Shown piece after piece: positions 2,284-42,448 of a stretch of 42,496 nucleotides of DNA (position 1 is the stretch's first letter; each line of letters opens with the position of its first letter). The notes below the pieces were generated by a model, which was not told the DNA's origin, did no database searches, and saw only the letters and a program-made list of their open reading frames with translations. This stretch comes from Patescibacteria group bacterium (GTDB taxonomy: Bacteria; Patescibacteriota; Minisyncoccia; UBA6257; UBA9933), in NCBI GenBank assembly GCA_038065955.1, contig JBBTPY010000002.1, forward strand, positions 1-42,496. The letters are read 5' to 3'. A program made the translations under genes and the position numbers.

Positions 2284-2354
2284 AGCGAGTAAGGGGAGTC
2301 GAACCCCTGTCAACAGGTTGGAAACCTGTGGTAATGCCGTTATACGATACTCGC
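2284..2354 (-). tRNA. tRNA-Gly (anticodon UCC), no encoded CCA
   Basis: The reverse complement folds as a cloverleaf. Acceptor GCGAGTA pairs with TACTCGC. The anticodon arm is ACAGG-TTTCCAA-CCTGT. The T arm is AGGGG-TTCGACT-CCCCT. The discriminator is U. Confidence 0.85.
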
Positions 2355-9090: not shown

Positions 9091-9165
9091 GCTCCCATCG
9101 TCTAGTGGTTAGGACATCAGGTTTTCATCCTGGCAACAGGGGTTCGATTCCCCTTGGGAGCACCA
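9091..9165 (+). tRNA. tRNA-Glu (anticodon UUC), CCA encoded
   Basis: Acceptor GCTCCCA pairs with TGGGAGC. The anticodon arm is TCAGG-TTTTCAT-CCTGG. The T arm is AGGGG-TTCGATT-CCCCT. It ends in ACCA and is 75 nt long. Confidence 0.9.
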
Positions 9166-11194: not shown

Positions 11195-11217
11195 AAAGAA
11201 AGAAAGAAAGAAAGAAA
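11193..11217 (+). repeat. (GAAA)n tetranucleotide microsatellite just upstream of an SD
   Basis: The sequence is GAAAA followed by five GAAA units. It abuts the GGAGGTG SD of the 11232 ORF. Confidence 0.9.
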
Positions 11218-11231
11218 GGAGGTGATTAATA

Positions 11232-11438
11232 ATGATTAAACTTTTTAGAATGATTAAAAAGTTTTTTAGTAAGATAATCATAATTAAAGCGCGAAAAGTT
11301 AGGGTAGAAGATATATTAAAAATGGATGGAGGAAAAATTGTAAGTGATATAATTCGAAGGGTTGAAAGAGAAAAAGAAATAAAAGAAAATGATTCGTGGT
11401 CAGATTACGACGCCTGGAATAATTGGGATAAAGTGTAG
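11232..11438 (+). CDS. Hypothetical small protein
   Basis: 68-aa ORF with a strong SD (AAGGAGGTG) 7 nt upstream. No motif was recognised. Confidence 0.4.
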   Translation: MIKLFRMIKKFFSKIIIIKARKVRVEDILKMDGGKIVSDIIRRVEREKEIKENDSWSDYDAWNNWDKV

Positions 11439-14219: not shown

Positions 14220-14303
14220 TGGTGCCCGGGGAGAGAGTCGAACTCTCATGCCTTGCGGCACACGATTTTGAGTCGTGCGTGTCTGCCATTCCACCACCCG
14301 GGC
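14220..14303 (-). tRNA. tRNA-Leu (anticodon CAA), CCA encoded
   Basis: The 84-nt reverse complement has acceptor GCCCGGG pairing with CCCGGGC. The anticodon arm is CACGA-CTCAAAA-TCGTG. There is a long variable arm (GCCGCAAGGC). The T arm is GAGAG-TTCGACT-CTCTC. Confidence 0.9.
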
Positions 14304-28362: not shown

Positions 28363-28461
28363 ATGAAAATTAATATATTGGACACTCCTGAAAATATAAA
28401 AATTATTATTGATAACAACTTGAAAGATTATGGAAAAAACTATTCCGGAAAAATTTTTTAA
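28363..28461 (+). CDS. Small leaderless-type ORF overlapping the fadD-like start (possibly a frameshifted N-terminal extension)
   Basis: TGGTATATT at 28343-28351 is an extended -10. The ORF reads MKINILDTPENIKIIIDNNLKDYGKNYSGKIF. Its N-terminus resembles the 35222 ORF (MSTILENIKIIIDNDPKDY). An A6 run lies at 28434-28439 at the overlap. Confidence 0.35.
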   Translation: MKINILDTPENIKIIIDNNLKDYGKNYSGKIF

Positions 28462-30240: not shown

Positions 30241-30717
30241 TTATTCAGATAAAATTTGTAATAATTCTAAATTATATCTTTTACCTTCTATCCAGTCCTG
30301 AACGGCAAGATACGCTCTCGTATTTATAAATTCTTCTTTTTTTATCTTCTTTAACTCTTCTTTATTAAAAAATCGCAATTCAGCAATATTTTCCTCTCTT
30401 TGTTTTTGTTCTTTTTTGTCGGAAATTTTCAGAGTTTCTTTTGTAAGAGAAGCTAAAAAATTAAATTGAATAGTCAGTTTATTTTTTCTTTTCAAGAAAA
30501 AGATGTTTAAAATATGATTAATATCGACACAAGCTCCGGCCTCTTCTTCGGATTCTCTTTTAGCGGCCGTAATAATATTTTTGTCTGCCTCCGGCTCAAA
30601 AGTTCCTTTTATAATATTCCAACGATACGCTCTATTTTGGTCATATTTTTCTTTTATCAATAACAGGCTGTCATTTTTTTGAATTAAGACGCCGATTTTA
30701 ATTTGAATTTCTGTCAT
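30241..30717 (-). CDS. NUDIX hydrolase
   Basis: The Nudix box is GTFEPEADKNIITAAKRESEEEAGA (Gx5Ex7REuxEExGu). 158 aa. Confidence 0.85.
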   Translation of the reverse strand: MTEIQIKIGVLIQKNDSLLLIKEKYDQNRAYRWNIIKGTFEPEADKNIITAAKRESEEEAGACVDINHILNIFFLKRKNKLTIQFNFLASLTKETLKISDKKEQKQREENIAELRFFNKEELKKIKKEEFINTRAYLAVQDWIEGKRYNLELLQILSE

Positions 30718-30748: not shown

Positions 30749-31468
30749 TTAATGGTCGCGCAATATTTTTTCATGACTGGCTGCGTGGCCTTCTCCATAT
30801 ACAATAAAAAGATCATATCCTTTTTCCCAAACATCTTTAATTCCCTTAATAACAGTTTGGTCGCGATATTTTCCGGAAGCGCGGACAACATCTTTAAACG
30901 GGTTATCTTCTTGCGTTGGGCTTTCTATTTTTTTAAAAAATTCAACATCGTTAAAATCCAATTCTGTTTTAAAAAATTGTTGGTGAATTTTTTTCATATG
31001 TTCAATGGAAAATTCAAAATCGTTCCACCCGCTTGCTTTTTCGTGGCGTTGTAAAAATGGCGATAAATAAGAAATTATATCCGGTTTTTGCTTTAATCGA
31101 TGCCATTGAGAAACAGTGCGGGCAAAATAATAATAAGCAATTTGTTCTTTGGAAAACTGCTGTAGTAGAGCATTCATTTCTTTGCCGCGATCTGGCTCAA
31201 AACAAGAAATAGGAGTATTGGTTTGATGGCAAAGATAAGCCATAAAATCTATCTCTCCTCCTTTTAGTATTGATTCTGTTTCTGTGTTATGGGTTTTCCA
31301 TCCTCGCGATTCCACGACAGCCAATGGCTGTTTAGCTATTTTTAAAAAATCTATCCATTTTTCTTTTATAAAGTTGAATTGTCGGTCAGTTGAATCCCAA
31401 GAATGGCGGACGCCAAGATAAAATAAAGTGGTGTTATTCTTTTTAAGAGAAAAGAAATAAGGAAACAT
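30749..31468 (-). CDS. Hypothetical protein, possibly of the Tiki/TraB/GumN superfamily
   Basis: 239 aa with two GxxH-type motifs at the positions typical of that superfamily (LFYLGVRHS near the N-terminus, IVYGEGHAASH near the C-terminus). The assignment is tentative. Confidence 0.3.
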   Translation of the reverse strand: MFPYFFSLKKNNTTLFYLGVRHSWDSTDRQFNFIKEKWIDFLKIAKQPLAVVESRGWKTHNTETESILKGGEIDFMAYLCHQTNTPISCFEPDRGKEMNALLQQFSKEQIAYYYFARTVSQWHRLKQKPDIISYLSPFLQRHEKASGWNDFEFSIEHMKKIHQQFFKTELDFNDVEFFKKIESPTQEDNPFKDVVRASGKYRDQTVIKGIKDVWEKGYDLFIVYGEGHAASHEKILRDH

Positions 31469-31493
31469 ATTTTTAATTCTACTAATTTTAGTG

Positions 31494-32132
31494 TTATTGG
31501 AGGACGTCTAGAAATTCTTTTTCAAGTTCCGTAAGATTTTTACCAAAAATATTAATTACAATTTTATTAAAACGATAATAAGAATAATAAATTGAAGATG
31601 ATTTTATTAATTGTTTTATTTTTTTAAATCCGTATTTATCAATAATATAGTGCGTGAATAAATAAGCAGTTGGATAAGCGCTTAAATTATTTCTGAATCG
31701 ATTCCAATTATAAAGTGTGTCAAGTTTACCACAAAAATTTGCTTCAAAATATTTAACTTTTGAGTTTTTATATTGCCCGGAAATAACCCCGGCCAATCCT
31801 TCAATTAACCACATAGGAAGAGTTTTGCTGTTTGACAAATGATTTGTGTAAATATGAATAAGTTCATGTTTAATTAAAAAAGGAAATTCTTCGAGTTTAT
31901 GCGATGGCGCTTCTTTTTTCCATCGCGCTGGATCCAGTAATAAAATTGTTTTTTTATTAGAGTTTGCGTTCCCAATTTCCCAATCAGCGGTTTTTCTGCC
32001 TAATAATTTTTCATATTCTGTTCTGTTTTTGGCAACCGTTATTTCAATATTTTCCAAATGAAAACCAAAAAAATCAGCAATTTCTTTGCGGGCGTTTTTA
32101 ATTTCTGTGTCGTATTTTGTGGTTTTGGGCAT
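31494..32132 (-). CDS. Cytoplasmic HExxH gluzincin-like peptidase (MA-clan-like), cassette 1
   Basis: 212 aa. HELIH is followed ~18 residues later by WLIEGLAG (third-ligand Glu pattern). No signal peptide. It is divergent from rSAM cassette 1. Confidence 0.6.
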   Translation of the reverse strand: MPKTTKYDTEIKNARKEIADFFGFHLENIEITVAKNRTEYEKLLGRKTADWEIGNANSNKKTILLLDPARWKKEAPSHKLEEFPFLIKHELIHIYTNHLSNSKTLPMWLIEGLAGVISGQYKNSKVKYFEANFCGKLDTLYNWNRFRNNLSAYPTAYLFTHYIIDKYGFKKIKQLIKSSSIYYSYYRFNKIVINIFGKNLTELEKEFLDVLQ

Positions 32133-32235
32133 AAATTTTCTTTAATTTAATCATACCAAATCTTTTTTATTTCGCCCACTTCTTGCTTAATTTCTCCCTA
32201 GTTAATTTCCTCTTATATTGTAGTATAATCTGGGT

Positions 32236-32304
32236 ATGGAAATATTAGTTACCGGCGCTATTGGCAAGGGCAAAACTTCGCTTTCGGCGTTTTGCTATCA
32301 TTGA
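32236..32304 (+). pseudogene. 22-codon remnant of a P-loop NTPase N-terminus behind a leaderless-type promoter
   Basis: TATAAT at 32224-32229 is followed by 6 nt and ATG 32236. The ORF reads MEILVTGAIGKGKTSLSAFCYH*, and GxxGxGKT(S) is a Walker A loop. It is truncated after 22 codons. Confidence 0.4.
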
Positions 32305-32335
32305 TGATAGCGGGAAATTGCGGATATATCGGCGC

Positions 32336-32465
32336 TTGACAAATTGGTTTGACTTGATATCATAAAACCAGCGTTTGGCTAAAATGGTTTAGTCAAAAGG
32401 ACATTAAAAAATAACGGCGAAGCCGTTTATAAGGGAGAAAATTTAAGAAAAGGAGGTGAAAAAAA
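32336..32465 (+). promoter_or_regulatory. Conserved promoter + two-hairpin 5' leader, cassette 1
   Basis: TTGACA lies at 32336-32341. Hairpin 1 is TTTGGCTAAA-ATGG-TTTAGTCAAA (32374-32397). Hairpin 2 is AACGGC-GAA-GCCGTT (32413-32427). The SD is AAAAGGAGGTG. It is homologous to the elements at 35512, 38160 and 40742. Confidence 0.65.
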
Positions 32466-33920
32466 ATGAAAAAGCAAAAATATCAGCTATCCCCAAATGT
32501 CCGCATCATATTTAATTCTGGAACAGAAACAGCGATGGTTTATCACGCGCTGTATGGCAATCCTCGGATTATCAATAACGAAGGTTTACATTTTTTGAAT
32601 TTATTTAGACAGCCGGTTGGTATGAAAGAAATATCTGAAATTTGCGATGGAGATTCAGAAGATACTATTCAAGAGTTTACTGAAATCTTTTTCCTTGTTA
32701 AACCCGGTTTCGACGAGAAAAAGTTCCTGCGAGAAAAAAAAGAACAGCAACTTATCCAAGTGCAAGAACGGCGGACGGTTGACAGGATGGGTCTCGCAAT
32801 CAGTGATTCGTGCAACTTTGGATGCACACACTGTATTCATTTCCAACCCGCAACCAACTTTGGTCAGGTACTGCTGATTTATCAACAAGCAACTCCACAG
32901 CTCAATATGACTTGGGAAACCGCAAAGCGATGCGTGGATCAGTATATTGCATTGATGAGATATCAAAAAAGGACTCACGGAAAGATACATTTCGGAAACG
33001 CAGAACCATTAGTCAATTGGCCTGTCATTAAGCAGGTGCTTGAATACTGCAGTAAGATGAGTGATCTCTCGTTTGAGTTCGCCATCAATACAAACATGGC
33101 GTTCATGACCAGACAAATTGCCGAGGCACTCAAGAAACATCAAGTTCACATTGCGACTTCACTCGATGGTACCCAGGTAGCCAACGATGCTATCCGTATT
33201 ACAAAGGGTGGGCAAGGAACATTCGTTCACATCCTTAAAAAATTTGATCTTTTAGTAAAGATTGGCTATCCGCTCGACGGATTCAGTATTACTATTACAA
33301 GAAGAAATTTTGATCTCGTTGATACGGATATTCTTGACTTGGCGATTGAAAGAAAAATGACTTCAATTGCCTTCGATTATGACCTTGTCGGTTTGGTTCA
33401 TATTCCAGTTGAGAAACGAATCACAAAACTCATGCGGCTCAAAAAATACGCCAACGAACACGGCGTCGATTTCTTTGGAACGTGGGATTCTCCGTTTCGT
33501 AATCTAACATCAGAAAGTCTTTTGTTTGGAGATCACGCGTTTTGCGCCGCTGTTCAGGGTAAATCTCTTGAGTTTAACGTGAATGGCAGTATTAAGATTT
33601 GTAGTCATACCACTACGCCGATAGGTCATATAGATAGATTTGATGGAGTGTTTGAAGAAAGGGGCGGTTTAGTGCAAATAGTTGCCAGTCGTTTCCCCGG
33701 AACGAATGAGTACTGTTCCGGCTGTGAGATAGAAGGACCCTGTGGCGGACAATGCCATGTTACCAGAGAGGTTGTTTCATGCTCGGCAAGCGAGAATCGA
33801 CAAAAATTCTTTGTCGATATGTGTGATTTTTATCGTGAAATTACAAAAGCGCTTGCCATAGAGTATCTCCGGTCAAATGGCGATAGCATGGCAAGTAGTC
33901 GCAAACGCTGTACTTTGTGA
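32466..33920 (+). CDS. Radical SAM / SPASM-domain peptide maturase, cassette 1
   Basis: 484 aa. A ~110-aa N-terminal (RRE-like?) region precedes CNFGCTHC (Cx3Cx2C). The C-terminal auxiliary-cluster Cys pattern is CAAV..ICSH..CSGCEIEGPCGGQCHV. Confidence 0.85.
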   Translation: MKKQKYQLSPNVRIIFNSGTETAMVYHALYGNPRIINNEGLHFLNLFRQPVGMKEISEICDGDSEDTIQEFTEIFFLVKPGFDEKKFLREKKEQQLIQVQERRTVDRMGLAISDSCNFGCTHCIHFQPATNFGQVLLIYQQATPQLNMTWETAKRCVDQYIALMRYQKRTHGKIHFGNAEPLVNWPVIKQVLEYCSKMSDLSFEFAINTNMAFMTRQIAEALKKHQVHIATSLDGTQVANDAIRITKGGQGTFVHILKKFDLLVKIGYPLDGFSITITRRNFDLVDTDILDLAIERKMTSIAFDYDLVGLVHIPVEKRITKLMRLKKYANEHGVDFFGTWDSPFRNLTSESLLFGDHAFCAAVQGKSLEFNVNGSIKICSHTTTPIGHIDRFDGVFEERGGLVQIVASRFPGTNEYCSGCEIEGPCGGQCHVTREVVSCSASENRQKFFVDMCDFYREITKALAIEYLRSNGDSMASSRKRCTL

Positions 33921-33936
33921 AAGGAGGTGAATCTAT

Positions 33937-34032
33937 ATGAAAAAAATCAAAATCAAAAAAATCAAAATTACCAAAGTCGTTTCCATGCCTTCGGGAGCAT
34001 TTTTTCCTGGTAAACGAACAGGTTGCAAGTAA
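33937..34032 (+). CDS. Candidate precursor peptide 1 (31 aa, Lys/Ile-rich, single Cys)
   Basis: The SD AAAGGAGGTG lies 7 nt upstream of ATG 33937. The peptide is MKKIKIKKIKITKVVSMPSGAFFPGKRTGCK. It occupies the same position as the mini-ORFs in cassettes 2-4 and is followed by a terminator. It is absent from the ORF track. Confidence 0.5.
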   Translation: MKKIKIKKIKITKVVSMPSGAFFPGKRTGCK

Positions 34033-34043
34033 TTGCAACCAAT

Positions 34044-34080
34044 GGGGTTAAGTACGAAAGTATTTAACCCCGCTTTTTTT
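34044..34080. terminator. Bidirectional terminator after cassette 1, overlapping the kinase 3' end
   Basis: GGGGTTAA (34044-34051) pairs with TTAACCCC (34064-34071), followed by GCTTTTTTT. Confidence 0.65.
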
Positions 34081-35001
34081 ATTCCATTTTACTATGATTT
34101 CATTGATATTTTTCTTTGGACTATTTGAATTTATTGTCCAATAAAGCGCGTTAAGATAAAAAATGGCGCGCACAAATTGATATTTTTTCTGAAATAGTTT
34201 TCTATCTTTTATAAGATTTGATTTTAAAATCGCCGCGATTAATTTATTCATGTAATCAGCTTCAAATATTTCATCAATACCTTGTTCTTGGTAAGCCTTT
34301 GCGCATTCTTGATAATAAAAAATGCGAAAAAGATCGTAGTCAGCATCGCCGAATAATGCCAGTTCCCAATCAATAATTCCGGTTAATTTTTTGCCGTCCG
34401 TAAGTAAGTTATGAATAATAAGATCACCATGAACAAGAGTTATTTCACCGTCGTCGGGAAAGAGATTTTGAGCTTCGGATTTTTCAATAATTAATAATAA
34501 ATCTTTTAAGATTTTATTTGCTTGTTTAAATTTCCTTATCCTGGAAATTTTTAGATTGATGTTGTCAGTGAGATAATCCAGAAAATTATTATATTTTTCA
34601 CCGGTATTAACGGAATAAATATAATCTTTAGTTTGAGTTTTTAAATACTGCAAAAATTTAATAATTTGTTTAACAATATTTGCTTGATTGGTTTTTGATA
34701 GAGTTTTCCAAAGCACGTCCAAAGTCTTTCCGGGAAGTCGATTTTCAACCATGGCGACTGATTTATTAATTTTCCCCGCCCACACGATATTTGGTATTAA
34801 TGAATGATTAAGTTTTTTTAAAAATTTTGTTTCTCTCAATAAAAGTTTTGGATTGTTATCTCGAAAACGGACGATATATTTGTTTGAAATGAAAACTTTA
34901 TGATGAGTACCGTTTGTAGCAGCTACAAAACGTTCTTCTTTGGAAATAGCAAGTTGTTTTTTGATTTTTTTAATTCGCAATAGATAATTTTTCATATTCA
35001 T
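34048..35001 (-). CDS. Aminoglycoside-phosphotransferase/choline-kinase-fold (APH family) kinase
   Basis: 317 aa. The catalytic loop is LVHGDLIIHNLL. The metal-binding segment is GIIDWELALFGDADYDL. An N-terminal Lys region (KVFIS) is present. Confidence 0.75.
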   Translation of the reverse strand: MNMKNYLLRIKKIKKQLAISKEERFVAATNGTHHKVFISNKYIVRFRDNNPKLLLRETKFLKKLNHSLIPNIVWAGKINKSVAMVENRLPGKTLDVLWKTLSKTNQANIVKQIIKFLQYLKTQTKDYIYSVNTGEKYNNFLDYLTDNINLKISRIRKFKQANKILKDLLLIIEKSEAQNLFPDDGEITLVHGDLIIHNLLTDGKKLTGIIDWELALFGDADYDLFRIFYYQECAKAYQEQGIDEIFEADYMNKLIAAILKSNLIKDRKLFQKKYQFVRAIFYLNALYWTINSNSPKKNINEIIVKWNKKSGVKYFRT

Positions 35002-35113
35002 TTCTATTTTCCGCGACTATGATTTCAATATTTTCTAAATGAAAACCAAAAAAATCCGCAATTTCCTTATGAGCGTTTTTAATTTCTATAGTATATTTAT
35101 CAGTTTTTACCAT
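34970..35113 (-). pseudogene. 47-codon N-terminal remnant of a cassette-type HExxH peptidase, overlapping the kinase start
   Basis: MVKTDKYTIEIKNAHKEIADFFGFHLENIEIIVAENRNEYEKLSIAN* aligns with the N-terminus of the 31494..32132 protein (MPKTTKYDTEIKNARKEIADFFGFHLENIEITVAKNRTEYEKL). The HExxH part is absent. Confidence 0.7.
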
Positions 35114-35221
35114 ATTATTTTAATAGATAATAACATTTAAGGTGATTTATTATAACAAGTCAAGTTTTTTGAAACTGCCTTTGTTTGGATTTTTTCCGTT
35201 GATTTGTGGTATAATTTATAA

Positions 35222-35493
35222 ATGTCAACCATTCTTGAAAATATCAAAATCATTATAGACAACGATCCAAAAGATTACGAGGTTAATAGTTTTTTAAGAA
35301 GATCATAATTTCATCAATGAAATCTCTTATTCTTGTCTTCCACGCTTTTAGGGATTTATTAATCAGGCATTTGCCAAATTTAAGAGAAAAAGAAAATTCT
35401 TTCGCGTTTCTAGTGCATCCGAGAGATACAAAAGACGTTTACCGGAAATATCCGTTTGCCGAATATCTGCCGGAAAATATGCTCTATAATTAA
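35222..35493 (+). pseudogene. Remnant of an unidentified gene in two pieces behind a leaderless-type promoter
   Basis: TGGTATAAT lies at 35207-35215, followed by 6 nt and ATG 35222. Piece one is MSTILENIKIIIDNDPKDYEVNSFLRRS* (35222-35308). Piece two is MKSLILVFHAFRDLLIRHLPNLREKENSFAFLVHPRDTKDVYRKYPFAEYLPENMLYN* (35317-35493). Both end abruptly. Confidence 0.5.
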
Positions 35494-35633
35494 CCGTATT
35501 TTGTCGCGCGCTTGACAAATCTGTTTAGTTTACTATTATAAAATCAGCATTTGGCTAAATGGGTTAGCCGAAATAACTTAACAAATAACGGCGAGAGCTG
35601 TTTATAAGGAAAGATTTTAAATGAAAAGGAGGT
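35339..35633 (+). repeat. 295-bp direct repeat, copy 1 (identical by eye to 37987..38281)
   Basis: Comparing the two stretches by eye, base for base, from TCCACGCTTTTAGGG to AAAAGGAGGT found no difference. The repeat covers the remnant ORF, the TTGACA promoter and the structured leader. Confidence 0.85.
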
Positions 35634-35640
35634 GAGAATA
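35512..35640 (+). promoter_or_regulatory. Conserved promoter + two-hairpin 5' leader, cassette 2
   Basis: TTGACA lies at 35512-35517. Hairpin 1 is TTTGGCTAA-ATGGG-TTAGCCGAA (35550-35572). Hairpin 2 is AACGGC-GAGA-GCTGTT (35587-35602). The SD is AAAAGGAGGTG. Confidence 0.65.
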
Positions 35641-36939
35641 ATGAAAAACAAAACATTTCTTGAGAAAGATACATTTATTGTTAGGGATGGAGAAACGTAT
35701 ATTATATATGCTCCATTTCGTGGTTTGATTACTCGGATAAATGAATTTCCAAAGAAAAATTCTCTGTTTTATTATCAATTAATTGATGTGGGATTTTTCC
35801 GCGAACCGCCTAAGTCGATAAAACGAGATGTTGAATGGCGCGATTTCCGTTCGCTTACGCTCTTACTTACGCGCGCGTGTAATATGAGTTGTATATATTG
35901 TTATGCGAAAGCGACGTCAAATGGAGAACGGATGCCTCTTAAAATTGCCCTCGGAACAGTTGAGTGGTTTTTGAAACAATTTATTGGAGAAACCATCAGA
36001 ATTACATTTCATGGCGGCGGAGAACCTACTCTGGAAATTAAAACAATTAAGAGAGTTGTGGAATATATTGAACGACATAAAAGAGATAAAAAAACTACTT
36101 ATCTTATTACCACAAACGGTACTGCGAAGCGGGAAATATGGGATTGGCTTGTAAATTATCAATTTGGCATTTCTATTTCCATGGATGGTCCTCCCGATAT
36201 TCAGAATCGTAATCGTCCTCTTGCGGTTTTAGGACAAAAAAATTCTTCTCAAATTGTTGAACGGAATTTGAAATTCTTAATAACGCGGGAATATCCTTTT
36301 TCCGTGCGACTTACTTTTTCACCAACCGATGATATTACGCGCATTGTTAAATATTTTGGCGAATTAGGAGTTAAGACACTTCATCTTGAACCGCTTTTTC
36401 CCTATGGAAGAGAATATAAATCGGTGGAATTTGGAGGAAAAAGCCGATATAAAATATATTCTCCTCAAGGCGAGGAGTTATTAAAAAATTTTTGGCAGGC
36501 GCTGGAAATGGCGCGAAAATATGGAATGAAGATTCGCAATGGACATATCAGTTATTTTACGAAAGGTATTGGATATTTTTGCGGCGCTGCGAGCGCGCGG
36601 TCTATGATAGTAAATCACGAAGGAAAACTTACTGGGTGTCTCGAGGTGGTAGACTCTTTAGATTTAGATGCTAATATATTTAATTTCGGTTATTATGTAC
36701 CAGAAGAAAAGCGGTTTGAGATTGATTTTAGTAAGGTAAAGATAATGCAAGAACGTCATGCCGACGCGCTTTCAGGGTGTAATTTATGTTATGCGCGATA
36801 TACTTGCGCTGGAGGGTGCGCCGTAAAAGCAGTGCGAGAATCAAATAATTTCTTTGCGCGTGATTTATTATATTGCGCGTTCACAAAAAATCTAATTCCT
36901 TTATTAGTTAAACATATTGTTAATACCACAGGAATTTAA
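35641..36939 (+). CDS. Radical SAM / SPASM-domain peptide maturase, cassette 2
   Basis: CNMSCIYC (Cx3Cx2C) follows an ~80-aa N-terminal region. The C-terminal pattern is CGAAS..LTGC..CNLCYARYTCAGGCAV. I prefer ATG 35641 (SD 7 nt upstream) over the track's GTG 35632. Confidence 0.85.
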   Translation: MKNKTFLEKDTFIVRDGETYIIYAPFRGLITRINEFPKKNSLFYYQLIDVGFFREPPKSIKRDVEWRDFRSLTLLLTRACNMSCIYCYAKATSNGERMPLKIALGTVEWFLKQFIGETIRITFHGGGEPTLEIKTIKRVVEYIERHKRDKKTTYLITTNGTAKREIWDWLVNYQFGISISMDGPPDIQNRNRPLAVLGQKNSSQIVERNLKFLITREYPFSVRLTFSPTDDITRIVKYFGELGVKTLHLEPLFPYGREYKSVEFGGKSRYKIYSPQGEELLKNFWQALEMARKYGMKIRNGHISYFTKGIGYFCGAASARSMIVNHEGKLTGCLEVVDSLDLDANIFNFGYYVPEEKRFEIDFSKVKIMQERHADALSGCNLCYARYTCAGGCAVKAVRESNNFFARDLLYCAFTKNLIPLLVKHIVNTTGI

Positions 36940-36957
36940 GAAAGGAGGTAAATAACG

Positions 36958-37113
36958 ATGAAAACTTTTACAGCTGTTCTTCCCGAAGAGTTAGTTCTTG
37001 GAGTGGATAGCTCTGTTTCTAGTTGTAATGGGCATGAAGGTTGTAGCGGCGATGATTGCAACGCGGATACTGGCGGATGCCCTTCAGATGGAAGTTGTGG
37101 CCAGGATTGTTAA
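36958..37113 (+). CDS. Candidate precursor peptide 2 (51 aa, six Cys in an acidic Gly/Ser-rich core)
   Basis: The SD GAAAGGAGGT precedes ATG 36958. The peptide is MKTFTAVLPEELVLGVDSSVSSCNGHEGCSGDDCNADTGGCPSDGSCGQDC. It is absent from the ORF track and is followed by a terminator. Confidence 0.7.
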   Translation: MKTFTAVLPEELVLGVDSSVSSCNGHEGCSGDDCNADTGGCPSDGSCGQDC

Positions 37114-37137
37114 TAATGGCAATATCTTAAGCTCTTA

Positions 37138-37178
37138 AGCAGTGAATCAGTTTAACTGGTTCACTGCTTTATTTTTTT
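37138..37178. terminator. Bidirectional terminator after cassette 2
   Basis: AGCAGTGAATCAG pairs with CTGGTTCACTGCT (13 bp, one U.G) around loop TTTAA, followed by TTATTTTTTT. It overlaps the stop of the minus-strand peptidase. Confidence 0.75.
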
Positions 37179-37867
37179 AACCACTCTTTCCAATTTTTTT
37201 GTAATTCTTGATATGTCATTTTAAAAATAATAGAACAAAGATATTCGTCATTAATCCCATTATTGCGCATTTCTTTTATAAATTTTAATAATAATTCAAG
37301 GCCGTATTTTTTAACGCAATATTGCGCGATACTGCCGGCCAAAGGATAGAAATCACTTGGCAAGGTTGATCTCCAAAAATCCCATGGAGTGTTTAATATC
37401 TCATTGGAATAATTCATAAAATTAGCGTGTTTTTTCTTATCAGCGTTTGCGCCGTCATAATATACGCATAATGATTCTTCCCATAAGCCGTTTGCCGGAA
37501 GATTTTCCGATGGATTTATACTTCCTAATAAAATATGATTTAATTCATGTCCTGGAGATTGTTTTAAATGCCCGTGAATTTCTTTTTGTTTAAGAAAAGA
37601 AATTGCCGGCGTTATGCCGATATCTTTTACGGAATTGATTGACGGATATACATAAAAATTAACATTTGAGATTGGATTAATGCCGAATATTTTCGCGTTT
37701 TGTAAATAAATATTTACGCGTTCTTGAATCCAGTTTGAAGGGATTTTTAAATTAGGATAAATATGAAAAACAATATATTTTGTTTTTTTAACACTCCAAT
37801 TATTAAAAAATCCTTCCCCTTTGAGTTTTTTTATTTGATTTTTTGTTTTTTCAAACCAATTTATCAT
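37169..37867 (-). CDS. Cytoplasmic HExxH peptidase-like protein, cassette 3
   Basis: 232 aa. HELNH is followed ~19 residues later by LWEESLCVYY. No signal peptide. It is divergent from rSAM cassette 3. Confidence 0.55.
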   Translation of the reverse strand: MINWFEKTKNQIKKLKGEGFFNNWSVKKTKYIVFHIYPNLKIPSNWIQERVNIYLQNAKIFGINPISNVNFYVYPSINSVKDIGITPAISFLKQKEIHGHLKQSPGHELNHILLGSINPSENLPANGLWEESLCVYYDGANADKKKHANFMNYSNEILNTPWDFWRSTLPSDFYPLAGSIAQYCVKKYGLELLLKFIKEMRNNGINDEYLCSIIFKMTYQELQKNWKEWLKK

Positions 37868-37961
37868 ATATTTTAATTTACCAAATTTTCTTTATTTTGG
37901 CTATTTTTGAAACTGTTTTTTTGTTTGGATTTTTTTCGTTGATTTATGGTATAATTTGGGT

Positions 37962-38141
37962 ATGTTTAAAAGTGTTATTTTAATTCTCCACGCTTTTAGG
38001 GATTTATTAATCAGGCATTTGCCAAATTTAAGAGAAAAAGAAAATTCTTTCGCGTTTCTAGTGCATCCGAGAGATACAAAAGACGTTTACCGGAAATATC
38101 CGTTTGCCGAATATCTGCCGGAAAATATGCTCTATAATTAA
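37962..38141 (+). pseudogene. Second copy of the gene remnant (59 codons) behind a leaderless-type promoter
   Basis: TGGTATAAT lies at 37947-37955, followed by 6 nt and ATG 37962. The ORF reads MFKSVILILHAFRDLLIRHLPNLREKENSFAFLVHPRDTKDVYRKYPFAEYLPENMLYN*. It matches 35317..35493 except for the first residues. The track's TTG 37956 start is less likely. Confidence 0.5.
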
Positions 38142-38281
38142 CCGTATTTTGTCGCGCGCTTGACAAATCTGTTTAGTTTACTATTATAAAATCAGCATTT
38201 GGCTAAATGGGTTAGCCGAAATAACTTAACAAATAACGGCGAGAGCTGTTTATAAGGAAAGATTTTAAATGAAAAGGAGGT
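37987..38281 (+). repeat. 295-bp direct repeat, copy 2
   Basis: It lies at a constant offset of 2648 nt from copy 1. No mismatch was seen by eye. Confidence 0.85.
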
Positions 38282-38289
38282 AAAAAGAG
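38160..38289 (+). promoter_or_regulatory. Conserved promoter + two-hairpin 5' leader, cassette 3
   Basis: TTGACA lies at 38160-38165. The hairpins are identical to cassette 2 (38198-38220 and 38235-38250). The SD is AAAAGGAGGT. Confidence 0.65.
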
Positions 38290-39564
38290 ATGAAAAGAGA
38301 AAAATATTTTACTCTGAATAAAAATTGCTTTTTAATTAAAGGAGCAAAACGAGGAGCGATTTATGATTTAGAATCAGGAAATGTATTTTCAGTGAACGAA
38401 GTAAGTGTTAAAATCTTAGAGGAATTAGATTCTTGGAAAGAATTTAAGCAGGTTTTTCAAGAAGACAAAAACATAACAGAGGGGAAATTAGTCATTTATT
38501 TAAATAAACTTAAAAAACTTGGTTTAGGGGAATGGAGCGAAATCTACAGAGAGAAATTAAACGTTATCCCAAAACCAATAGACGTTCTCAAATTTGTTCT
38601 TCATCTTGAATTGACTACTGGTTGCAACTTGTGTTGCGTTCATTGTTATAACGAAAGCGAAATAACCAAATTTAGAAAAAATAATAATCTTTCTCTTAAT
38701 GAATGGAAGAGGATTATAAAAGAAGCTTATGAGATTGGTTGTAGAAGAGTCCAATTTATCGGAGGAGAACCATTTTTGAAAAGGAGATTGTTGTATACTT
38801 CGATTCTGCTTGCTCGGGAAATAGGTTATACTTCAATAGAAGTAAGTACTAATGGAACCTTAATAACAGAAAAAGATTTGGACTTTTTAAAAGAAAATAC
38901 GGTTAGTTTAGCCTTTTCTGTTTATAGTTATAACTCTAATGTGCATGATGCTATTACTGCCAAAAAAGGAAGCCAAAAACAAACATTGCGTACAATTAAA
39001 AGAGCTTTGGAGATGGATATTAATTTTAGAATATCAGTAGTGGCAATGAGGCAAAACGAAAAAGAAATTAAGAAGACAGTTAAGTTTTTAAAATCTCTTG
39101 GAATTCAGCATGTAAAGACAAATACTGTTGAACCAGTGGGTAGAGGCTGTAATGATAATCTTATTACCGCTGATATAGTAGACCAACAGATTTTAGACAG
39201 ACCTTCTTTCTTTAAAATTAATTACAATACATTTTGGAGAAATAAATTAGGGCATAACTGTTTTCTTGAACATATTTGTATTGCGGCAGATGGTAATATT
39301 TATCCTTGTCTTGCGGAACGAGAAATTTCTTACGGAAATATAAAATCAACTCCGTTGAATGAAATTTTTTCATCAGAGATAGCGCAAAACTTTCGCAATT
39401 TAAATAAGGATTATATTGAAGTTTGCCGAGATTGCGAATATCGATATTGTTGCTTTGATTGTCGCGTAAAAGCCAGAGATTCTTTAATTAATAGTTTTTA
39501 CACAAAATCTTGGTGGTGTTTCTATGATCCATATAAGGGTCAGTGGCATAAAAAAATTAATTAA
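38290..39564 (+). CDS. Radical SAM / SPASM-domain peptide maturase, cassette 3
   Basis: CNLCCVHC (Cx3Cx2C) follows a ~105-aa N-terminal region. The C-terminal pattern is CFLEHICIAADGNIYPC..CRDCEYRYCCFDCRV. Confidence 0.85.
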   Translation: MKREKYFTLNKNCFLIKGAKRGAIYDLESGNVFSVNEVSVKILEELDSWKEFKQVFQEDKNITEGKLVIYLNKLKKLGLGEWSEIYREKLNVIPKPIDVLKFVLHLELTTGCNLCCVHCYNESEITKFRKNNNLSLNEWKRIIKEAYEIGCRRVQFIGGEPFLKRRLLYTSILLAREIGYTSIEVSTNGTLITEKDLDFLKENTVSLAFSVYSYNSNVHDAITAKKGSQKQTLRTIKRALEMDINFRISVVAMRQNEKEIKKTVKFLKSLGIQHVKTNTVEPVGRGCNDNLITADIVDQQILDRPSFFKINYNTFWRNKLGHNCFLEHICIAADGNIYPCLAEREISYGNIKSTPLNEIFSSEIAQNFRNLNKDYIEVCRDCEYRYCCFDCRVKARDSLINSFYTKSWWCFYDPYKGQWHKKIN

Positions 39565-39580
39565 AAAGGAGGTGAGAATT

Positions 39581-39709
39581 ATGGCAAAGAATATTGAAAA
39601 ACAAAAAGAAGATGATGGATTGGAAATTCAATTAATAACAAGCGAGTTGGCGACTGATGGTGTTTGTGGCCCCGATACTTGTCCTTGGGTTGGCTGTGAG
39701 GTGAGCTAA
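39581..39709 (+). CDS. Candidate precursor peptide 3 (42 aa, C-x4-C-x4-C core)
   Basis: The SD AAAAGGAGGTG precedes ATG 39581. The peptide is MAKNIEKQKEDDGLEIQLITSELATDGVCGPDTCPWVGCEVS. The track's 39524 start lies inside the rSAM gene and has no SD. Confidence 0.7.
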   Translation: MAKNIEKQKEDDGLEIQLITSELATDGVCGPDTCPWVGCEVS

Positions 39710-39715
39710 ATTTTT

Positions 39716-39760
39716 GGGCTGTTCAAGTTTTTTTAAATCTTGGGCAGCCCTATTTTATTT
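39716..39760. terminator. Terminator after cassette 3
   Basis: GGGCTGTTCAAG (39716-39727) pairs with CTTGGGCAGCCC (39739-39750) over 12 bp with two U.G pairs, followed by TATTTTATTT. It overlaps the 3' end of the minus-strand peptidase. Confidence 0.65.
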
Positions 39761-40536
39761 CTATTTTTAATTAAAAATTCTTTTAACTCTAAAATGTTCT
39801 TTTTTAATTTACCGCCCAAATATTTTCTCCAATATGGGAATAATTTTTTTTCTAATGGCAAAAAGGTAGGAGATTCAGTACAAAATTTTCCTTCTTTGAA
39901 ATATTTTCCTTTTTTATTTAATCTAATTTTTAACTCGTTATCTGCTAACATAATAAGAGCATGGAGGATGTCATAGTTTGGTTGAAAATGATCGAGCCAA
40001 GTCATAATATGCATTAACTCATGACAAAGAAAAATTGTTGAATGATTTTTCCATTTTTCTTCGCGCCCTCGAACAATAGTATTTTTATTAATAGTTTTTG
40101 CATTTTGCGATTTAGGATGCGTAATATAAACAGTAATTTTATGTTTAGGGATTGGCAATCCGGATATTTCTTGAAGAATTTTTAAAGCCTCTTTTTTATT
40201 TCTGTTCCATTGATTTCTAATAAATATAAGATGCTCTTCTGTTTCTTTTAATAATCTCTTACACTCTTTCGTTTTAAAAATTTCTTTGTAAATCTCTTTT
40301 AGTTTTAATAAATGCTTTTTAAAAACTTTTTCAATGTTTCTATCGTCAAAATTTGTTTGTATTTGTTCTAACGCTAAAGAGATATATTTCGAGTTTAAAA
40401 AATAATAAGCAGGCTCATCTCTGTGTTTTTGCCATATTTTTTCTTCCAGTTTTTCCCATGCAGGAAATGGCTTATTTTTTGAAGCCATCGTATAGCCGAC
40501 AAGATAATATTTATTTATTTTAAACTCAAATTTCAT
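39733..40536 (-). CDS. Cytoplasmic HExxH protein (peptidase-like), cassette 4
   Basis: 267 aa with HELMH in FLCHELMHIMTWLDH. No signal peptide. It is divergent from rSAM cassette 4. Confidence 0.5.
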   Translation of the reverse strand: MKFEFKINKYYLVGYTMASKNKPFPAWEKLEEKIWQKHRDEPAYYFLNSKYISLALEQIQTNFDDRNIEKVFKKHLLKLKEIYKEIFKTKECKRLLKETEEHLIFIRNQWNRNKKEALKILQEISGLPIPKHKITVYITHPKSQNAKTINKNTIVRGREEKWKNHSTIFLCHELMHIMTWLDHFQPNYDILHALIMLADNELKIRLNKKGKYFKEGKFCTESPTFLPLEKKLFPYWRKYLGGKLKKNILELKEFLIKNRNKIGLPKI

Positions 40537-40625
40537 ATAATTTATCTTACCAAATTTTATTTATTTTGACCACTTTTTATTACCGATTTTCTTCATTTTT
40601 ATGGCAATTGTGGTATAATTTAAAT

Positions 40626-40745
40626 ATGCTTAAAGATTATCTAAAAAACTTATTATTAGGTGTTGCGGAAAGAAAGCCGAATGCGAAGATTTTTAATCTT
40701 TTCAAAAAAGATTATACCAGAGGCGCGAAATATATACAGGATTGA
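40626..40745 (+). CDS. 39-codon small ORF behind a leaderless-type promoter
   Basis: TGGTATAAT lies at 40611-40619, followed by 6 nt and ATG 40626. The ORF reads MLKDYLKNLLLGVAERKPNAKIFNLFKKDYTRGAKYIQD*. Its TGA overlaps the TTGACA of the cassette promoter. The coding status is uncertain. Confidence 0.3.
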   Translation: MLKDYLKNLLLGVAERKPNAKIFNLFKKDYTRGAKYIQD

Positions 40746-40869
40746 CAAATTGGTTTGACTTACTATACTAAAATCAGTGTTTGGCTAAAATGGGTTTAGC
40801 CAAAAGAACTTTGAAAAACAACGGCAGGGCCGTTTAGATGAAAAAATTAAGAAAAGGAGGGAAAAAGAA
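40742..40869 (+). promoter_or_regulatory. Conserved promoter + two-hairpin 5' leader, cassette 4
   Basis: TTGACA lies at 40742-40747. Hairpin 1 is TTTGGCTAAA-ATGGG-TTTAGCCAAA (40780-40804, perfect 10 bp). Hairpin 2 is AACGGC-AGG-GCCGTT (40820-40834). The SD is AAAAGGAGGG. Confidence 0.65.
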
Positions 40870-42294
40870 ATGGGAAAAGATTATTCTTTTTCAATGGATG
40901 ACATTCCTACTAAAGCGGATTTTATTTATAAGGATCAGATTGACGAGTTAACCTTAATGTGCACGCCATTAGCAATGAACGGTATACACTTATTAAGTGT
41001 GAAGTCTTTATCTGTGTTGAACCAATGTAGTGGTGTTTTCTCAATTGGAGAAATTATTCAATTAACCGGCTGTGAAAAAACATATGTCTTTGGTGTAATC
41101 AACATTCTGTGGCAGAATAGGCTTATCAGAATCAACGGTGAGTTTCCGCCGAATGACAACAGAATTAGTTTATCTAAGCAAATTGATGTTTGGTTTCATA
41201 TCACAAATAACTGTAATCTCCGTTGTCCTTACTGTTACATTCAAAAGACTAATGAGTCAATGAATAAAAGAATGGCGTATCTGGCTGTTGATAATCTAAT
41301 TAATAGTGCATTATCGCATTATATTCCGGAAGTGCGTCTTAAATTCACGGGCGGAGAACCGTTATTGCGTTTTTCTCTTATTAAAGGATTGGTAAATTAC
41401 AGCAAAAGACAAGGCGAAGAAAGAGGAGTAAAATTCAGTTTTCATATTTTAACTAATGGGACTCTTCTTTCAGAAAAAATTGTTAGATATCTCAAGGAAG
41501 AAAATATCACACTTTCACTTTCTCTTGATGGTGTTGAGGAAGAGAATAACCGATTGAGATATTATGCGAATAGCAAGGGCACTTTCAGGCGTATTGAGCA
41601 ATCCATGAAACTCTTAAAAGACTATGGAATTCGTCCATATATCCTTACAACTGTTACGGCTTTGAATCTTGATGGTTTACCAGCTTTCACCCGCTATGTG
41701 ATAAAAAATAAGTTTTCTGTTCGTTTTAGTCTATATCGCGAATTAGGTGTTTCAAAAGAGGCGTTAAAAAATTACACCGATGAAGTGATAAAAATTCTTC
41801 ATAAATGTTACGATATCTATGAAGAAAATTTACCAGAAGAAGATTTTTCTTCTGTACATCAATTGTGCGATATTAAATTGAAAAAAAGCAGAAAACGGGT
41901 TTGCGGAATTGGCACTAAAGGAGTAAGTATTGGTCACCGAGGAGAAATTGCTCTTTGCCAAGCATTGTTCAACAAACCCATAGGGCATATCTCAAAAGAC
42001 GATGCTCTTGCCGCTGTTCGTAATCAAAATCAATTCCCATCTCATAAATATTCCATTAATAATTACGAACATTGCAAAGATTGTAATTGGCGATATTTGT
42101 GCGGCGGCGGATGTCCCGTGTTAACTAAACTGCAATACGGCAGATTCGACACATTTTCTCCTTATTGCGAAGTATTTAGAACTTTAATTCCTAGATTGAT
42201 TAGGATTATGGGACTTCAGATTTTGCGGGCACATAGGAAAACAATGACTGAAATCGAGAAACAAAAAGGAGGTGATTTAGATGCAAATCAATGA
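40870..42294 (+). CDS. Radical SAM / SPASM-domain peptide maturase, cassette 4
   Basis: CNLRCPYC (Cx3Cx2C) follows a ~110-aa N-terminal region. The C-terminal pattern is CGIGTKG..IALC..CKDCNWRYLCGGGCPV. Confidence 0.85.
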   Translation: MGKDYSFSMDDIPTKADFIYKDQIDELTLMCTPLAMNGIHLLSVKSLSVLNQCSGVFSIGEIIQLTGCEKTYVFGVINILWQNRLIRINGEFPPNDNRISLSKQIDVWFHITNNCNLRCPYCYIQKTNESMNKRMAYLAVDNLINSALSHYIPEVRLKFTGGEPLLRFSLIKGLVNYSKRQGEERGVKFSFHILTNGTLLSEKIVRYLKEENITLSLSLDGVEEENNRLRYYANSKGTFRRIEQSMKLLKDYGIRPYILTTVTALNLDGLPAFTRYVIKNKFSVRFSLYRELGVSKEALKNYTDEVIKILHKCYDIYEENLPEEDFSSVHQLCDIKLKKSRKRVCGIGTKGVSIGHRGEIALCQALFNKPIGHISKDDALAAVRNQNQFPSHKYSINNYEHCKDCNWRYLCGGGCPVLTKLQYGRFDTFSPYCEVFRTLIPRLIRIMGLQILRAHRKTMTEIEKQKGGDLDANQ

Positions 42295-42406
42295 AAATTA
42301 CGGCATAATTTCTGGATTTACTGCTGACACATTAATTATTTCGCAGTGCCAGGAGTGCGCTCCCGTAGAAGACTGCGATTGTCATTGTGTTGACGATGAT
42401 GATTAG
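42281..42406 (+). CDS. Candidate precursor peptide 4 (41 aa, five Cys, poly-Asp tail)
   Basis: The SD AAAAGGAGGTG lies inside the rSAM 3' end. ATG 42281 overlaps the rSAM gene by 14 nt. The peptide is MQINENYGIISGFTADTLIISQCQECAPVEDCDCHCVDDDD. It is absent from the ORF track. Confidence 0.7.
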   Translation: MQINENYGIISGFTADTLIISQCQECAPVEDCDCHCVDDDD

Positions 42407-42413
42407 CGGAGTT

Positions 42414-42448
42414 GGGGTTGAATTTGATAAATTCAACCCCATTTTTTA
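42414..42448 (+). terminator. Rho-independent terminator after cassette 4
   Basis: GGGGTTGAATTT (42414-42425) pairs with AAATTCAACCCC (42429-42440), followed by ATTTTTT. Confidence 0.8.

Follow-up and report, generated by a model that had tools for sequence, protein, structure and literature searches.

The DNA described here is a 42,496-nucleotide stretch of contig JBBTPY010000002.1 (positions 1 to 42,496) from a Patescibacteria group bacterium; we refer to the whole of this stretch as the window. Toward its downstream end, four open reading frames (ORFs) on the + strand encode enzymes of the radical S-adenosylmethionine (rSAM)/SPASM type, called rSAM1 to rSAM4. Each is followed by a mini-ORF (pep1 to pep4) and then by a terminator, and the ORF list places genes for proteins with an HExxH motif between the units. 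Each enzyme gene and its mini-ORF, together with the promoter and leader that precede them, make up one cassette (Table 1). Here, we examine the array as a candidate locus for peptides that ribosomes make and that are modified after translation (RiPPs). Loci used for comparison carry L numbers.

Table 1. Features of the array and its immediate surroundings, in order of position in the window (SD, Shine–Dalgarno sequence; RRE, RiPP recognition element)
Feature	Position	Strand	Description
239-aa protein	30749-31468	-	26 nt downstream of the HEx1 gene on the same strand; without HExxH motif
HEx1	31494-32132	-	212 aa; HELIH and Glu111; predicted gluzincin-type metallopeptidase
Promoter 1 and leader	32336-32465	+	-10 ends at 32363; hairpin 1 32374-32397; hairpin 2 32413-32427; SD AAGGAGGTGA 32450-32459
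rSAM1	32466-33920	+	484 aa; TigE-like family; N-terminal RRE-like region; invariant G-T-W motif
pep1	33937-34032	+	31 aa, Lys-rich: MKKIKIKKIKITKVVSMPSGAFFPGKRTGCK
Terminator 1	34043-34072	.	Hairpin common to the convergent pep1 and kinase genes
APH-family kinase	34048-35001	-	317 aa; Pfam APH E = 6e-18; convergent with rSAM1-pep1
HEx1-type remnant	34970-35113	-	47 codons; 81% aa identity to HEx1 residues 1-43; 79% nucleotide repeat
Gene fragments upstream of cassette 2	35222-35493	+	28-codon methyltransferase piece and 58-codon ORF
Promoter 2 and leader	35512-35640	+	Conserved copy
rSAM2	35641-36939	+	432 aa; closest to PapB, nif11, and QhpD maturases; GTG at 35632 falls within SD
pep2	36958-37113	+	51 aa; core CNGHEGCSGDDCNADTGGCPSDGSCGQDC
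Terminator 2	37137-37169	.	15-bp hairpin between pep2 and the convergent HEx3 gene
HEx3	37169-37867	-	232 aa; HELNH; distant HEx1 relative
Promoter 3 and leader	38160-38289	+	Almost identical to the cassette 2 copy
rSAM3	38290-39564	+	424 aa; AhbD/NirJ/PqqE/AlbA/SkfB type
pep3	39581-39709	+	42 aa: MAKNIEKQKEDDGLEIQLITSELATDGVCGPDTCPWVGCEVS; ATG at 39581; SD 39566-39575
Terminator 3	39716-39750	.	12-bp hairpin, z = -4.0; overlaps the 3' end of the convergent HEx4 gene
HEx4	39733-40536	-	267 aa; HELMH; uncharacterized family
Promoter 4 and leader	40742-40869	+	Hairpin 1 40780-40804; hairpin 2 40820-40834
rSAM4	40870-42294	+	474 aa; closest to PapB/CteB type
pep4	42281-42406	+	41 aa; core SQCQECAPVEDCDCHCVDDDD; 14-nt overlap with the rSAM4 stop
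Terminator 4	42413-42441	+	Hairpin after pep4; window ends 55 nt further on

Four maturases of different kinds

As the first-pass annotation, made from the letters of the sequence, had described, each enzyme carries the CX3CX2C motif (CNFGCTHC, CNMSCIYC, CNLCCVHC, and CNLRCPYC), and seven SPASM cysteines align in all four. The profile check proposed at that stage gave a mixed outcome. The Pfam Radical_SAM model matches all four enzymes (E = 3e-10 to 7e-28), the SPASM model matches rSAM3 (E = 3e-12, with Radical_SAM at E = 7e-28) and rSAM4 only, and the PqqD model matches none; the N-terminal region of rSAM2 spans only ~70 residues. The cassettes had also been called paralogous. That description is loose: pairwise identity among the four enzymes is just 21-25%, cassette 1 is a distinct module, and the units are not copies of one design. 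The four enzymes belong to different subfamilies and are predicted to be different maturases.

Profile and structure searches lead to RiPP maturases. Specifically, the nearest NCBIfam models of rSAM2 and rSAM4 are the PapB (ranthipeptide), nif11, QhpD, CcpM, and SCIFF maturases, and those of rSAM3 are of the AhbD, NirJ, PqqE, AlbA, StsB, and SkfB type; QhpD is among the top models of rSAM1, rSAM2, and rSAM4. In the PDB, the best match of rSAM2 is CteB (5wgg), that of rSAM3 is SkfB, and that of rSAM1 is TigE (8VPO; E = 3e-35, residues 22-432). The rSAM4 family profile matches CteB (5wgg) with E = 3e-37 over residues 35-421, the RRE region included. At the N-termini, the alignments begin at residue 21 for rSAM4 with CteB and at residue 22 for rSAM1 with TigE, a methyl-cyclopropylglycine synthase whose RRE comprises residues 3-85 (PMC10878394). 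With RiPP maturases as best NCBIfam models and with N-termini of rSAM4 and rSAM1 that align to the RRE-bearing regions of CteB and TigE, respectively, the earlier proposal of RiPP-type enzymes holds, and the prediction that all four are RiPP-type rSAM/SPASM maturases is supported.

The array proteins are also present on 20 contigs, the longest of 695 kb, from groundwater metagenomes (0.1-µm-filtered, to judge from contig names and samples), and named homologs come from Patescibacteria, Wolfebacteria, Kuenenbacteria, and Taylorbacteria. A joint protein search with rSAM1 to rSAM3 was dominated by rSAM1 relatives and yielded no close relatives of rSAM2 or rSAM3; a 32% identical relative of rSAM2 is encoded in a Wolfebacteria genome (L007). 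A defense system was considered and rejected: PADLOC gave only generic rSAM-core similarity to viperins, far weaker than the RiPP maturase matches.

Mini-ORFs as predicted precursor genes

Across the 42.5 kb of the window, 10 copies of the motif AAGGAGGKRA are present where 0.26 would be expected; eight of the 10 coincide exactly with SDs of the array, one for each rSAM gene and one for each mini-ORF. Thus, the mini-ORFs are as strongly geared for translation as the enzymes. These eight SDs, along with the hairpins located after the mini-ORFs, confirm the description of SD-driven mini-ORFs of 31-51 codons with terminators downstream of each maturase. Elsewhere in the window, a 68-residue ORF at 11232-11438 (+; region 11216-11438) is also preceded by the strong SD AAGGAGGTGA, which is otherwise nearly confined to the eight array ORFs.

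The search of related genomes for the mini-ORFs, suggested with the initial description, returned relatives of pep1, of pep4, and a pep2-like ORF. Homologs of pep4 overlap or abut the enzyme stop codon in seven metagenomic loci (L016-L021, L024) whose rSAM4 relatives are 31-63% identical, and the family possesses a homologous leader, G-[ILV]-[IV]-S/T, and a core of the form SQCxEC...DCDC..C.DDDD. In the Wolfebacteria locus L007, the rSAM2-like gene is followed by a 43-residue ORF of pep2 design, ending ...ELAGISSTCPTHTDDCQCGDDCTCGTDT. For pep3, the evidence consists of its position, SD, and composition; gene callers also give the 42-residue product on other contigs. With relatives of pep1, pep2, and pep4 in the same position elsewhere, we take the mini-ORFs downstream of the maturases to be real genes.

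The four cores had been regarded as unrelated in sequence. This needs qualification: pep2, pep3, and pep4 share a Cys-Xn-Asp/Glu design. An Asp or Glu within the next four residues is found for five of six cysteines in pep2, all five in pep4, two of three in pep3, and none in pep1. In pep2, pep4, and their relatives, nearly all cysteines have Asp or Glu 0-4 residues on. PapB cross-links Cys-Xn-Asp/Glu motifs, with n = 0-6, as thioethers (PMC9413430). None of the mini-ORFs matches a curated precursor model in NCBIfam or Pfam.

A common promoter and leader

Each cassette begins with the same control segment, as had been claimed. A TTGACA-16-TATxAT promoter with 11 of 12 matches lies ~100 nt upstream of each rSAM gene (at 32336, 35512, 38160, and 40742). 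These four are the best promoter-like sites on the cassettes' strand; one more site with 11 of 12 matches lies at 42424, past pep4. The leader that follows is ~100 nt long and conserved among the four copies from promoter to start codon. It folds into two hairpins, with the SD left unpaired in each of the three folds. This arrangement of the SD lends no support to a riboswitch, and a search of Rfam found no known RNA family for the leader at either the gathering threshold or a permissive E-value.

Related leaders occur in other genomes. A profile built from the four copies gives weaker matches directly upstream of rSAM genes in L013, L018, L098 (twice), and L099, and the same architecture precedes the rSAM1-like gene of L102. 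The common core consists of TTTAAMAAAY, a GC-rich hairpin of 6-7 bp, and TATA(A/T)GGAGG. Across 11 leaders, 95.5% of cells in hairpin 2 are paired, with compensatory changes on both sides in four of six pairs, and the G-U pairs of the leader hairpin fall on the sense strand. A search with a strict leader pattern found 19 matches in 1.35 Mb, compared with ~1.3 in shuffled sequence. We read the leader as a shared cis-element of the rSAM peptide cassettes in this lineage. Most likely it would function as an mRNA 5' stabilizer or high-expression leader, or as the target of a common regulator.

A conserved rSAM1–pep1–kinase module

Cassette 1 differs from the others in its conservation. The rSAM1 family comprises >120 clusters with 46-88% identity, all from Patescibacteria where named. 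In six contexts (the window, L096, L097, L099, L100, and L101), the rSAM1 gene is followed by a Lys-rich ORF of 30-31 residues and then by a convergent APH kinase gene; the kinases of the five other loci are 45-70% identical to that of the window. The genes around the six triads are unrelated to one another. Because the triad recurs in six unrelated contexts, the APH kinase is a conserved partner of cassette 1. This result revises one part of the initial description of the junction between cassettes 1 and 2. The 47-codon stub of an HExxH gene reported there is present, with 81% amino acid identity to HEx1, but the idea that the kinase is an intruder that replaced the HExxH gene was rejected in view of its synteny with rSAM1.

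An alignment of pep1 from the six contexts reads MKKIxIKKIxIxKV.P...G....G[K/R]RTxCK. The Ile/Val-rich N-terminus shows the K/I alternation KKIKIKKIKI, and the invariant portion is the single-copy C-terminus. In a sister clade (L098 and L102, enzymes 46-47% identical), the peptide is a 37-residue variant ending ...KGKDASCT, and in place of the kinase the neighbors are an M16 peptidase, two GNAT acetyltransferases, and an ABC exporter, a layout that looks like that of an exported RiPP. This exchange suggests that the kinase and the GNATs may have equivalent roles, either in tailoring or in self-protection against a cationic peptide.

The enzyme itself carries the motif FGTWDSP at the position of GYW, and in 106 homologs G is found in 106, T in 105, and W in 106. 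The SPASM cysteines C360, C379, C417, C420, C426, C430, and C453 are invariant in the same 106 homologs. In cyclopropyl synthases, GYW is strictly conserved, with an essential Tyr that serves as a ligand of auxiliary cluster I (PMC10878394). With G-T-W in place of GYW, rSAM1 therefore represents a sister family. We speculate, quite tentatively, that the triad is an undescribed peptide-modification pathway conserved across Patescibacteria, the candidate phyla radiation (CPR). In such a pathway, new radical chemistry would be followed by phosphorylation, the product would be a core factor in host interaction or signaling, not an accessory antibiotic, the leader motif would mark a CPR-wide regulon or stabilizer, and HisKA_7TM kinases might sense the products.

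Two further genes are found near such cassettes. HisKA_7TM histidine kinase genes lie within a few kilobases of rSAM-peptide cassettes in three loci (L001:13170-14780, L011:10159-11796, and L097:1384-3039), with no response regulator seen alongside; these kinases might detect the peptides, or their location could be a coincidence. A NUDIX hydrolase gene is located <2 kb from the triad in three of seven contexts (L099:5444-5833, L101:9519-9959, and window 30241-30717), which may be a weak association.

HExxH proteins in two families

Beyond the window, the full contig continues with a fifth HExxH gene (L001:11596-12249), a methyltransferase gene, and a HisKA_7TM sensor kinase gene. The product of the fifth gene, p217, has 217 residues and the motif HELMH, and its gene follows pep4. 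None of the HExxH proteins has a hydrophobic segment, and all are predicted to be cytoplasmic. By sequence they fall into two families, HEx1/HEx3 and HEx4/p217.

In the first family, HEx3 is related to HEx1 at E = 1e-4 (BLASTP), and both match Pfam Peptidase_MA_2 under its cut-off of 32.4 bits (HEx1, 27.8 bits; HEx3, 20.6 bits, E = 4e-4). Among 17 patescibacterial HEx1 homologs with 63-72% identity, H89, H93, and E111 are invariant and E90 is nearly so. The AlphaFold2 model of HEx1 has a mean confidence score (pLDDT) of 93, and the top Foldseek matches are the collagenase T peptidase domain (query-normalized TM-score, TMq, 0.61), selecase, lugdulysin, and LTA4H; the probability is ~1.0, but E is only 9e-3 and TMq does not exceed 0.61. 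HEx1 thus models as a gluzincin peptidase fold. NCBIfam, at E <= 0.01, returned nothing for HEx1, HEx3, and HEx4 except flagellinolysin for HEx1.

The second family has no sequence match in Pfam, NCBIfam, or the PDB for either of its branches. The HEx4 branch comprises 297 representative clusters in which W110, H172, E173, and H176 are invariant and E201 is nearly so. In the p217 branch, H134, E135, H138, and E164 are invariant, with the Glu 26 residues after the motif. The two branches are joined by hhalign (probability 96%, E = 4.5e-9). A single-sequence structure model of HEx4 has a pLDDT of 41, too low for use.

The association of HExxH genes with rSAM cassettes is real. At least 12 such genes, of the two families, lie within ~1 kb of rSAM-peptide cassettes in eight loci; they adjoin cassettes in L007, L009, L011, L016, L018, L097, and L098, in varying order and orientation. 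In seven loci (27-53% identity) the order is constant: a gene for an rSAM4-type enzyme, its peptide gene, and then a p217-type gene. The description of every cassette as facing its own divergent HExxH gene holds only in part: HExxH genes do lie between the units, but the conserved partner of cassette 4 is the co-directional downstream p217 gene, not the divergent upstream HExxH gene. The HExxH proteins are putative leader peptidases.

Additional observations concern these genes. The HEx1, HEx3, and HEx4 genes share an extended -10 element, TTTGGTA[AT][GA]AT, ~9-20 nt before the ATG, with no SD (32133-32183, 37868-37908, and 40537-40577, - strand), which suggests leaderless or near-leaderless transcripts that diverge from the rSAM promoters. 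In the Wolfebacteria locus L098:4672-11999, three small HExxH proteins (226, 235, and 249 residues) are encoded <7 kb from the rSAM1-like gene. A profile search of genome contigs with the HEx1 alignment gave only three loci.

Remnants, repeats, and a related island

The spaces between cassettes hold traces of rearrangement. The 28-codon piece upstream of cassette 2 matches, with 71% identity, the start of the methyltransferase protein (L001:12283-13158) that now lies after the array. The 58-codon ORF beside it occurs twice, the second copy (37968-38138, upstream of cassette 3) being 95% identical, and is contained in a 300-nt repeat (35320-35619 and 37968-38267) that is 97% identical. This ORF may resemble the N-terminus of a larger enzyme. 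Given the remnants and the 97% repeat, segmental duplication and recombination seem to have distributed the promoter-leader segments.

A related genome harbors a comparable multi-cassette island. Specifically, L016:1-8766, which encodes an rSAM4 relative of 63% identity, contains three rSAM genes, at least three Cys-rich mini-ORFs, an ORF for a PqqD-like protein of 117 residues, and two HExxH proteins. In L002, a 695-kb contig, rSAM1, the kinase, the methyltransferase, and the histidine kinase are among many locus genes that are in pieces; this looks like indel errors of long-read assembly, not real pseudogenes.

Comparison with characterized systems

The closest parallels to units 2 and 4 are PapA/PapB (freyrasin) and CteA/CteB (thermocellin, SCIFF), in which an rSAM/SPASM enzyme with an N-terminal RRE acts with cores that have many Cys-Xn-Asp/Glu motifs (PMC9413430). 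PapB is the best NCBIfam model and CteB the best solved structure for rSAM2 and rSAM4. Unlike in those systems, scores in the window are about half the equivalog cut-off or less, the precursor gene lies downstream of the maturase gene or overlaps its stop, no SCIFF or other precursor model is matched, small HExxH companions take the place of the usual protease/exporter set, and the host belongs to the CPR.

QhpD, from the maturation of quinohemoprotein amine dehydrogenase, forms Cys-to-Asp/Glu thioethers, and the gene for its substrate, QhpC, lies directly downstream of the rSAM gene. The window resembles this system in the rank of QhpD among the top models for rSAM1, rSAM2, and rSAM4 and in the downstream position of the substrate gene; it differs in having no qhpA or qhpB genes, peptides of 31-51 residues, and scores far under the cut-off.

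For cassette 1, the counterpart is TvgB/TigE, whose precursors repeat a short motif with a conserved Val or Ile: rSAM1 matches TigE over nearly its full length, including the RRE and SPASM regions, and the N-terminal half of pep1 is repetitive and Ile/Val-rich. Unlike that pair, the rSAM1 family has G-T-W, not GYW, pep1 is most conserved in its non-repetitive C-terminus, and the partner is an APH kinase. The third enzyme is closest to AlbA/SkfB and PqqE, with SkfB its best PDB match and AlbA, StsB, and PqqE among its NCBIfam matches; yet its scores are far under the cut-offs, and pep3 matches no known precursor.

The HExxH proteins invite comparison with the alpha-ketoglutarate (aKG)-HExxH enzymes (IPR026337/TIGR04267; Fxs-type systems). 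Such enzymes (ChlBH, BpmH, and PflC) act on Asp or His and are encoded beside rSAM/SPASM maturases or fused with them (PMC12636437). Those of the window likewise adjoin rSAM/SPASM maturases, but they lack a sequence match to the aKG-HExxH enzymes, HEx1 models as a gluzincin fold, and all are small stand-alone proteins of 210-270 residues.

In the literature searched, ranthipeptide clusters of Patescibacteria are mentioned at survey level only, and no description of the present system was found. Its kind is known (rSAM/SPASM RiPPs, ranthipeptide-like). The variant is new and unusual in organization: downstream precursors, a portable promoter-leader, two HExxH families, and a CPR-wide rSAM-peptide-kinase module.

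Interpretation and alternatives

We consider it likely that the array is a RiPP island of four rSAM-precursor units that have a common promoter-leader, employ HExxH zinc peptidases as processors, and arose by duplication. The notion is that each unit would be transcribed from its own near-consensus sigma-70 promoter copy, through a leader whose two hairpins leave the strong SD free, to a hairpin terminator, and that the shared leader would co-regulate or stabilize the four transcripts. Each maturase, via a putative N-terminal peptide-recognition domain, would act on its own downstream precursor. In units 2-4, as family similarity and core composition suggest, Cys sulfur would be joined to a carbon of Asp, Glu, or another residue in thioethers; on the same grounds, units 2 and 4 would be of ranthipeptide type and unit 3 possibly of sactipeptide type. 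In unit 1, the kinase probably modifies the pep1 product or shields the producer from it. The HExxH proteins would be zinc peptidases that cut off leaders or otherwise process the peptides. The island would have grown as the promoter-leader segment was duplicated and recombined, with gene fragments left over.

Several findings weigh against this interpretation. Each of the four maturases falls well short of all NCBIfam equivalog cut-offs. For example, rSAM4, rSAM2, and rSAM1 reach 174.7, 136.3, and 85.8 bits with the PapB model NF047865 (cut-off 340), and the SCIFF maturase model gives 121.7 (cut-off 425). With all scores so far under the curated cut-offs, the cross-link type is therefore a guess. 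For unit 1, the nearest relative of rSAM1 is a cyclopropyl synthase, which forms C-C bonds instead of thioethers, and only a single Cys is present in pep1. No relative of pep3 was found by tblastn in the loci searched, a set without close rSAM3 relatives. The stability of the leader relative to shuffled sequence is modest (z = -1.6 to -2.6), and a leader match in L009 precedes a gene for a secreted protein, not an rSAM gene. No HExxH protein exceeds the threshold of a curated peptidase family, HEx1 is absent beside rSAM1 in L096, L099, and L100, and the pairing of HExxH genes with cassettes is ambiguous. The first-pass annotation had noted that the array contains no dedicated exporter, and we likewise found none inside it.

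For the HExxH proteins, the main alternative to a peptidase is an oxidase. HExxH proteins of other rSAM RiPP clusters proved to be alpha-ketoglutarate/iron oxidases, whose targets in known pathways are Asp and His of peptides that an rSAM enzyme has already cross-linked (PMC12636437). Those of the window could likewise hydroxylate Asp or other residues, or cleave the backbone oxidatively, instead of removing leaders. Asp and Glu abound in the cores of the array, no peptidase family is matched by the HEx4/p217 family, and conserved His and Arg residues that follow the motif in the latter could bind a co-substrate. We nonetheless regard oxidases as unlikely. None of the five HExxH proteins matches the NCBIfam aKG-HExxH model (E <= 0.01; E <= 5 for the p217 family), and the HEx1 model resembles gluzincin peptidases, with the usual Glu ~18 residues past the motif. 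In addition, the largely anaerobic or fermentative life assumed for such Patescibacteria would not suit an O2-dependent enzyme. Alternatively, the HExxH genes could be unrelated neighbors, encoding immunity or housekeeping proteins brought close by genome compaction. Their order and orientation differ between genomes, HEx1 (63-72%) is more conserved than the variable maturases, and rSAM1 frequently occurs with no adjoining HExxH gene. The recurrence of at least 12 such genes of two families near cassettes in eight loci, and the fixed order of the p217 type after an rSAM4-type enzyme and peptide in seven, make mere proximity decidedly improbable.

A different challenge concerns what the cassettes make. 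Instead of a secreted antibiotic-type RiPP, cassette 1 could yield a conserved physiological product, for instance a factor derived from a peptide or a small basic protein that is modified, and merely lie beside the variable cassettes. The 55-88% identity of rSAM1 across named candidate phyla and >120 clusters is unusually high for a RiPP maturase, the triad sits in unrelated housekeeping neighborhoods, and the pep1 C-terminus is invariant. The sister clade, with its M16 peptidase, two GNATs, and ABC exporter, has by contrast the classical layout of an exported RiPP, and in the window the promoter and leader of cassette 1 are those of the variable cassettes too; the physiological alternative is thus possible, although we doubt it. 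Far less can be said for a locus that makes no RiPP at all, in which the rSAMs would mature proteins or cofactors (sulfatase, heme, or quinoprotein type) and the mini-ORFs would be chance ORFs. AnSME and AhbD/NirJ models do appear among the weaker matches, but no sulfatase, heme, or quinohemoprotein genes lie nearby, the enzymes have N-terminal RRE-like regions, and the mini-ORFs carry the strongest SDs of the window. Conservation of the mini-ORFs in other genomes, even where enzyme identity is as low as 31%, effectively refutes this alternative, and we give it almost no credence.

The genomes of Patescibacteria (CPR), at ~0.7 Mb, encode very little biosynthetic capacity, and an attached life on host cells is assumed for most of these bacteria. 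Here, ~12 kb, or ~1.7% of a 695-kb contig, is devoted to four peptide-maturation units under one control element. Should the products act as signals, toxins, or host-interaction factors, the island would provide a tractable entry to the dealings of CPR bacteria with hosts and competitors. The units are two- or three-gene sets, small enough for expression in Escherichia coli. Enzymology gains new material in a cyclopropyl-synthase scaffold with GTW and in the two uncharacterized HExxH families tied to rSAM cassettes, one of which has ~300 representative clusters.

Neighboring genes

An exporter-like pair of genes lies ~3 kb upstream of the array (26547-28331, +), encoding an ABC_membrane protein (233 residues) and then an ABC_tran protein (342 residues). 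The two may be parts of one exporter whose gene is split or frameshifted, and the peptides could leave by this route. Between this pair and the array are genes for an acyl-CoA ligase (28430-30178) and a NUDIX hydrolase (30241-30717, -). The 239-residue protein at the border of the array has no Pfam or NCBIfam match, no informative PDB match, and no relative in the other loci compared; a TraB/Tiki-like fold is conceivable.

The remainder of the window is housekeeping in character: topoisomerase I, DprA, PBP2, triose-phosphate isomerase, RelA/SpoT, ParB, ThiI, and SecDF. Genes further upstream encode a protein with sigma-70 region 4 and HARE-HTH domains (5230-6255), an ATPase resembling type IV secretion coupling proteins (7575-9044), and a Fic-domain protein (9424-10578). 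Three tRNA genes lie at 2284-2354 (-), 9091-9162 (+), and 14223-14303 (-).

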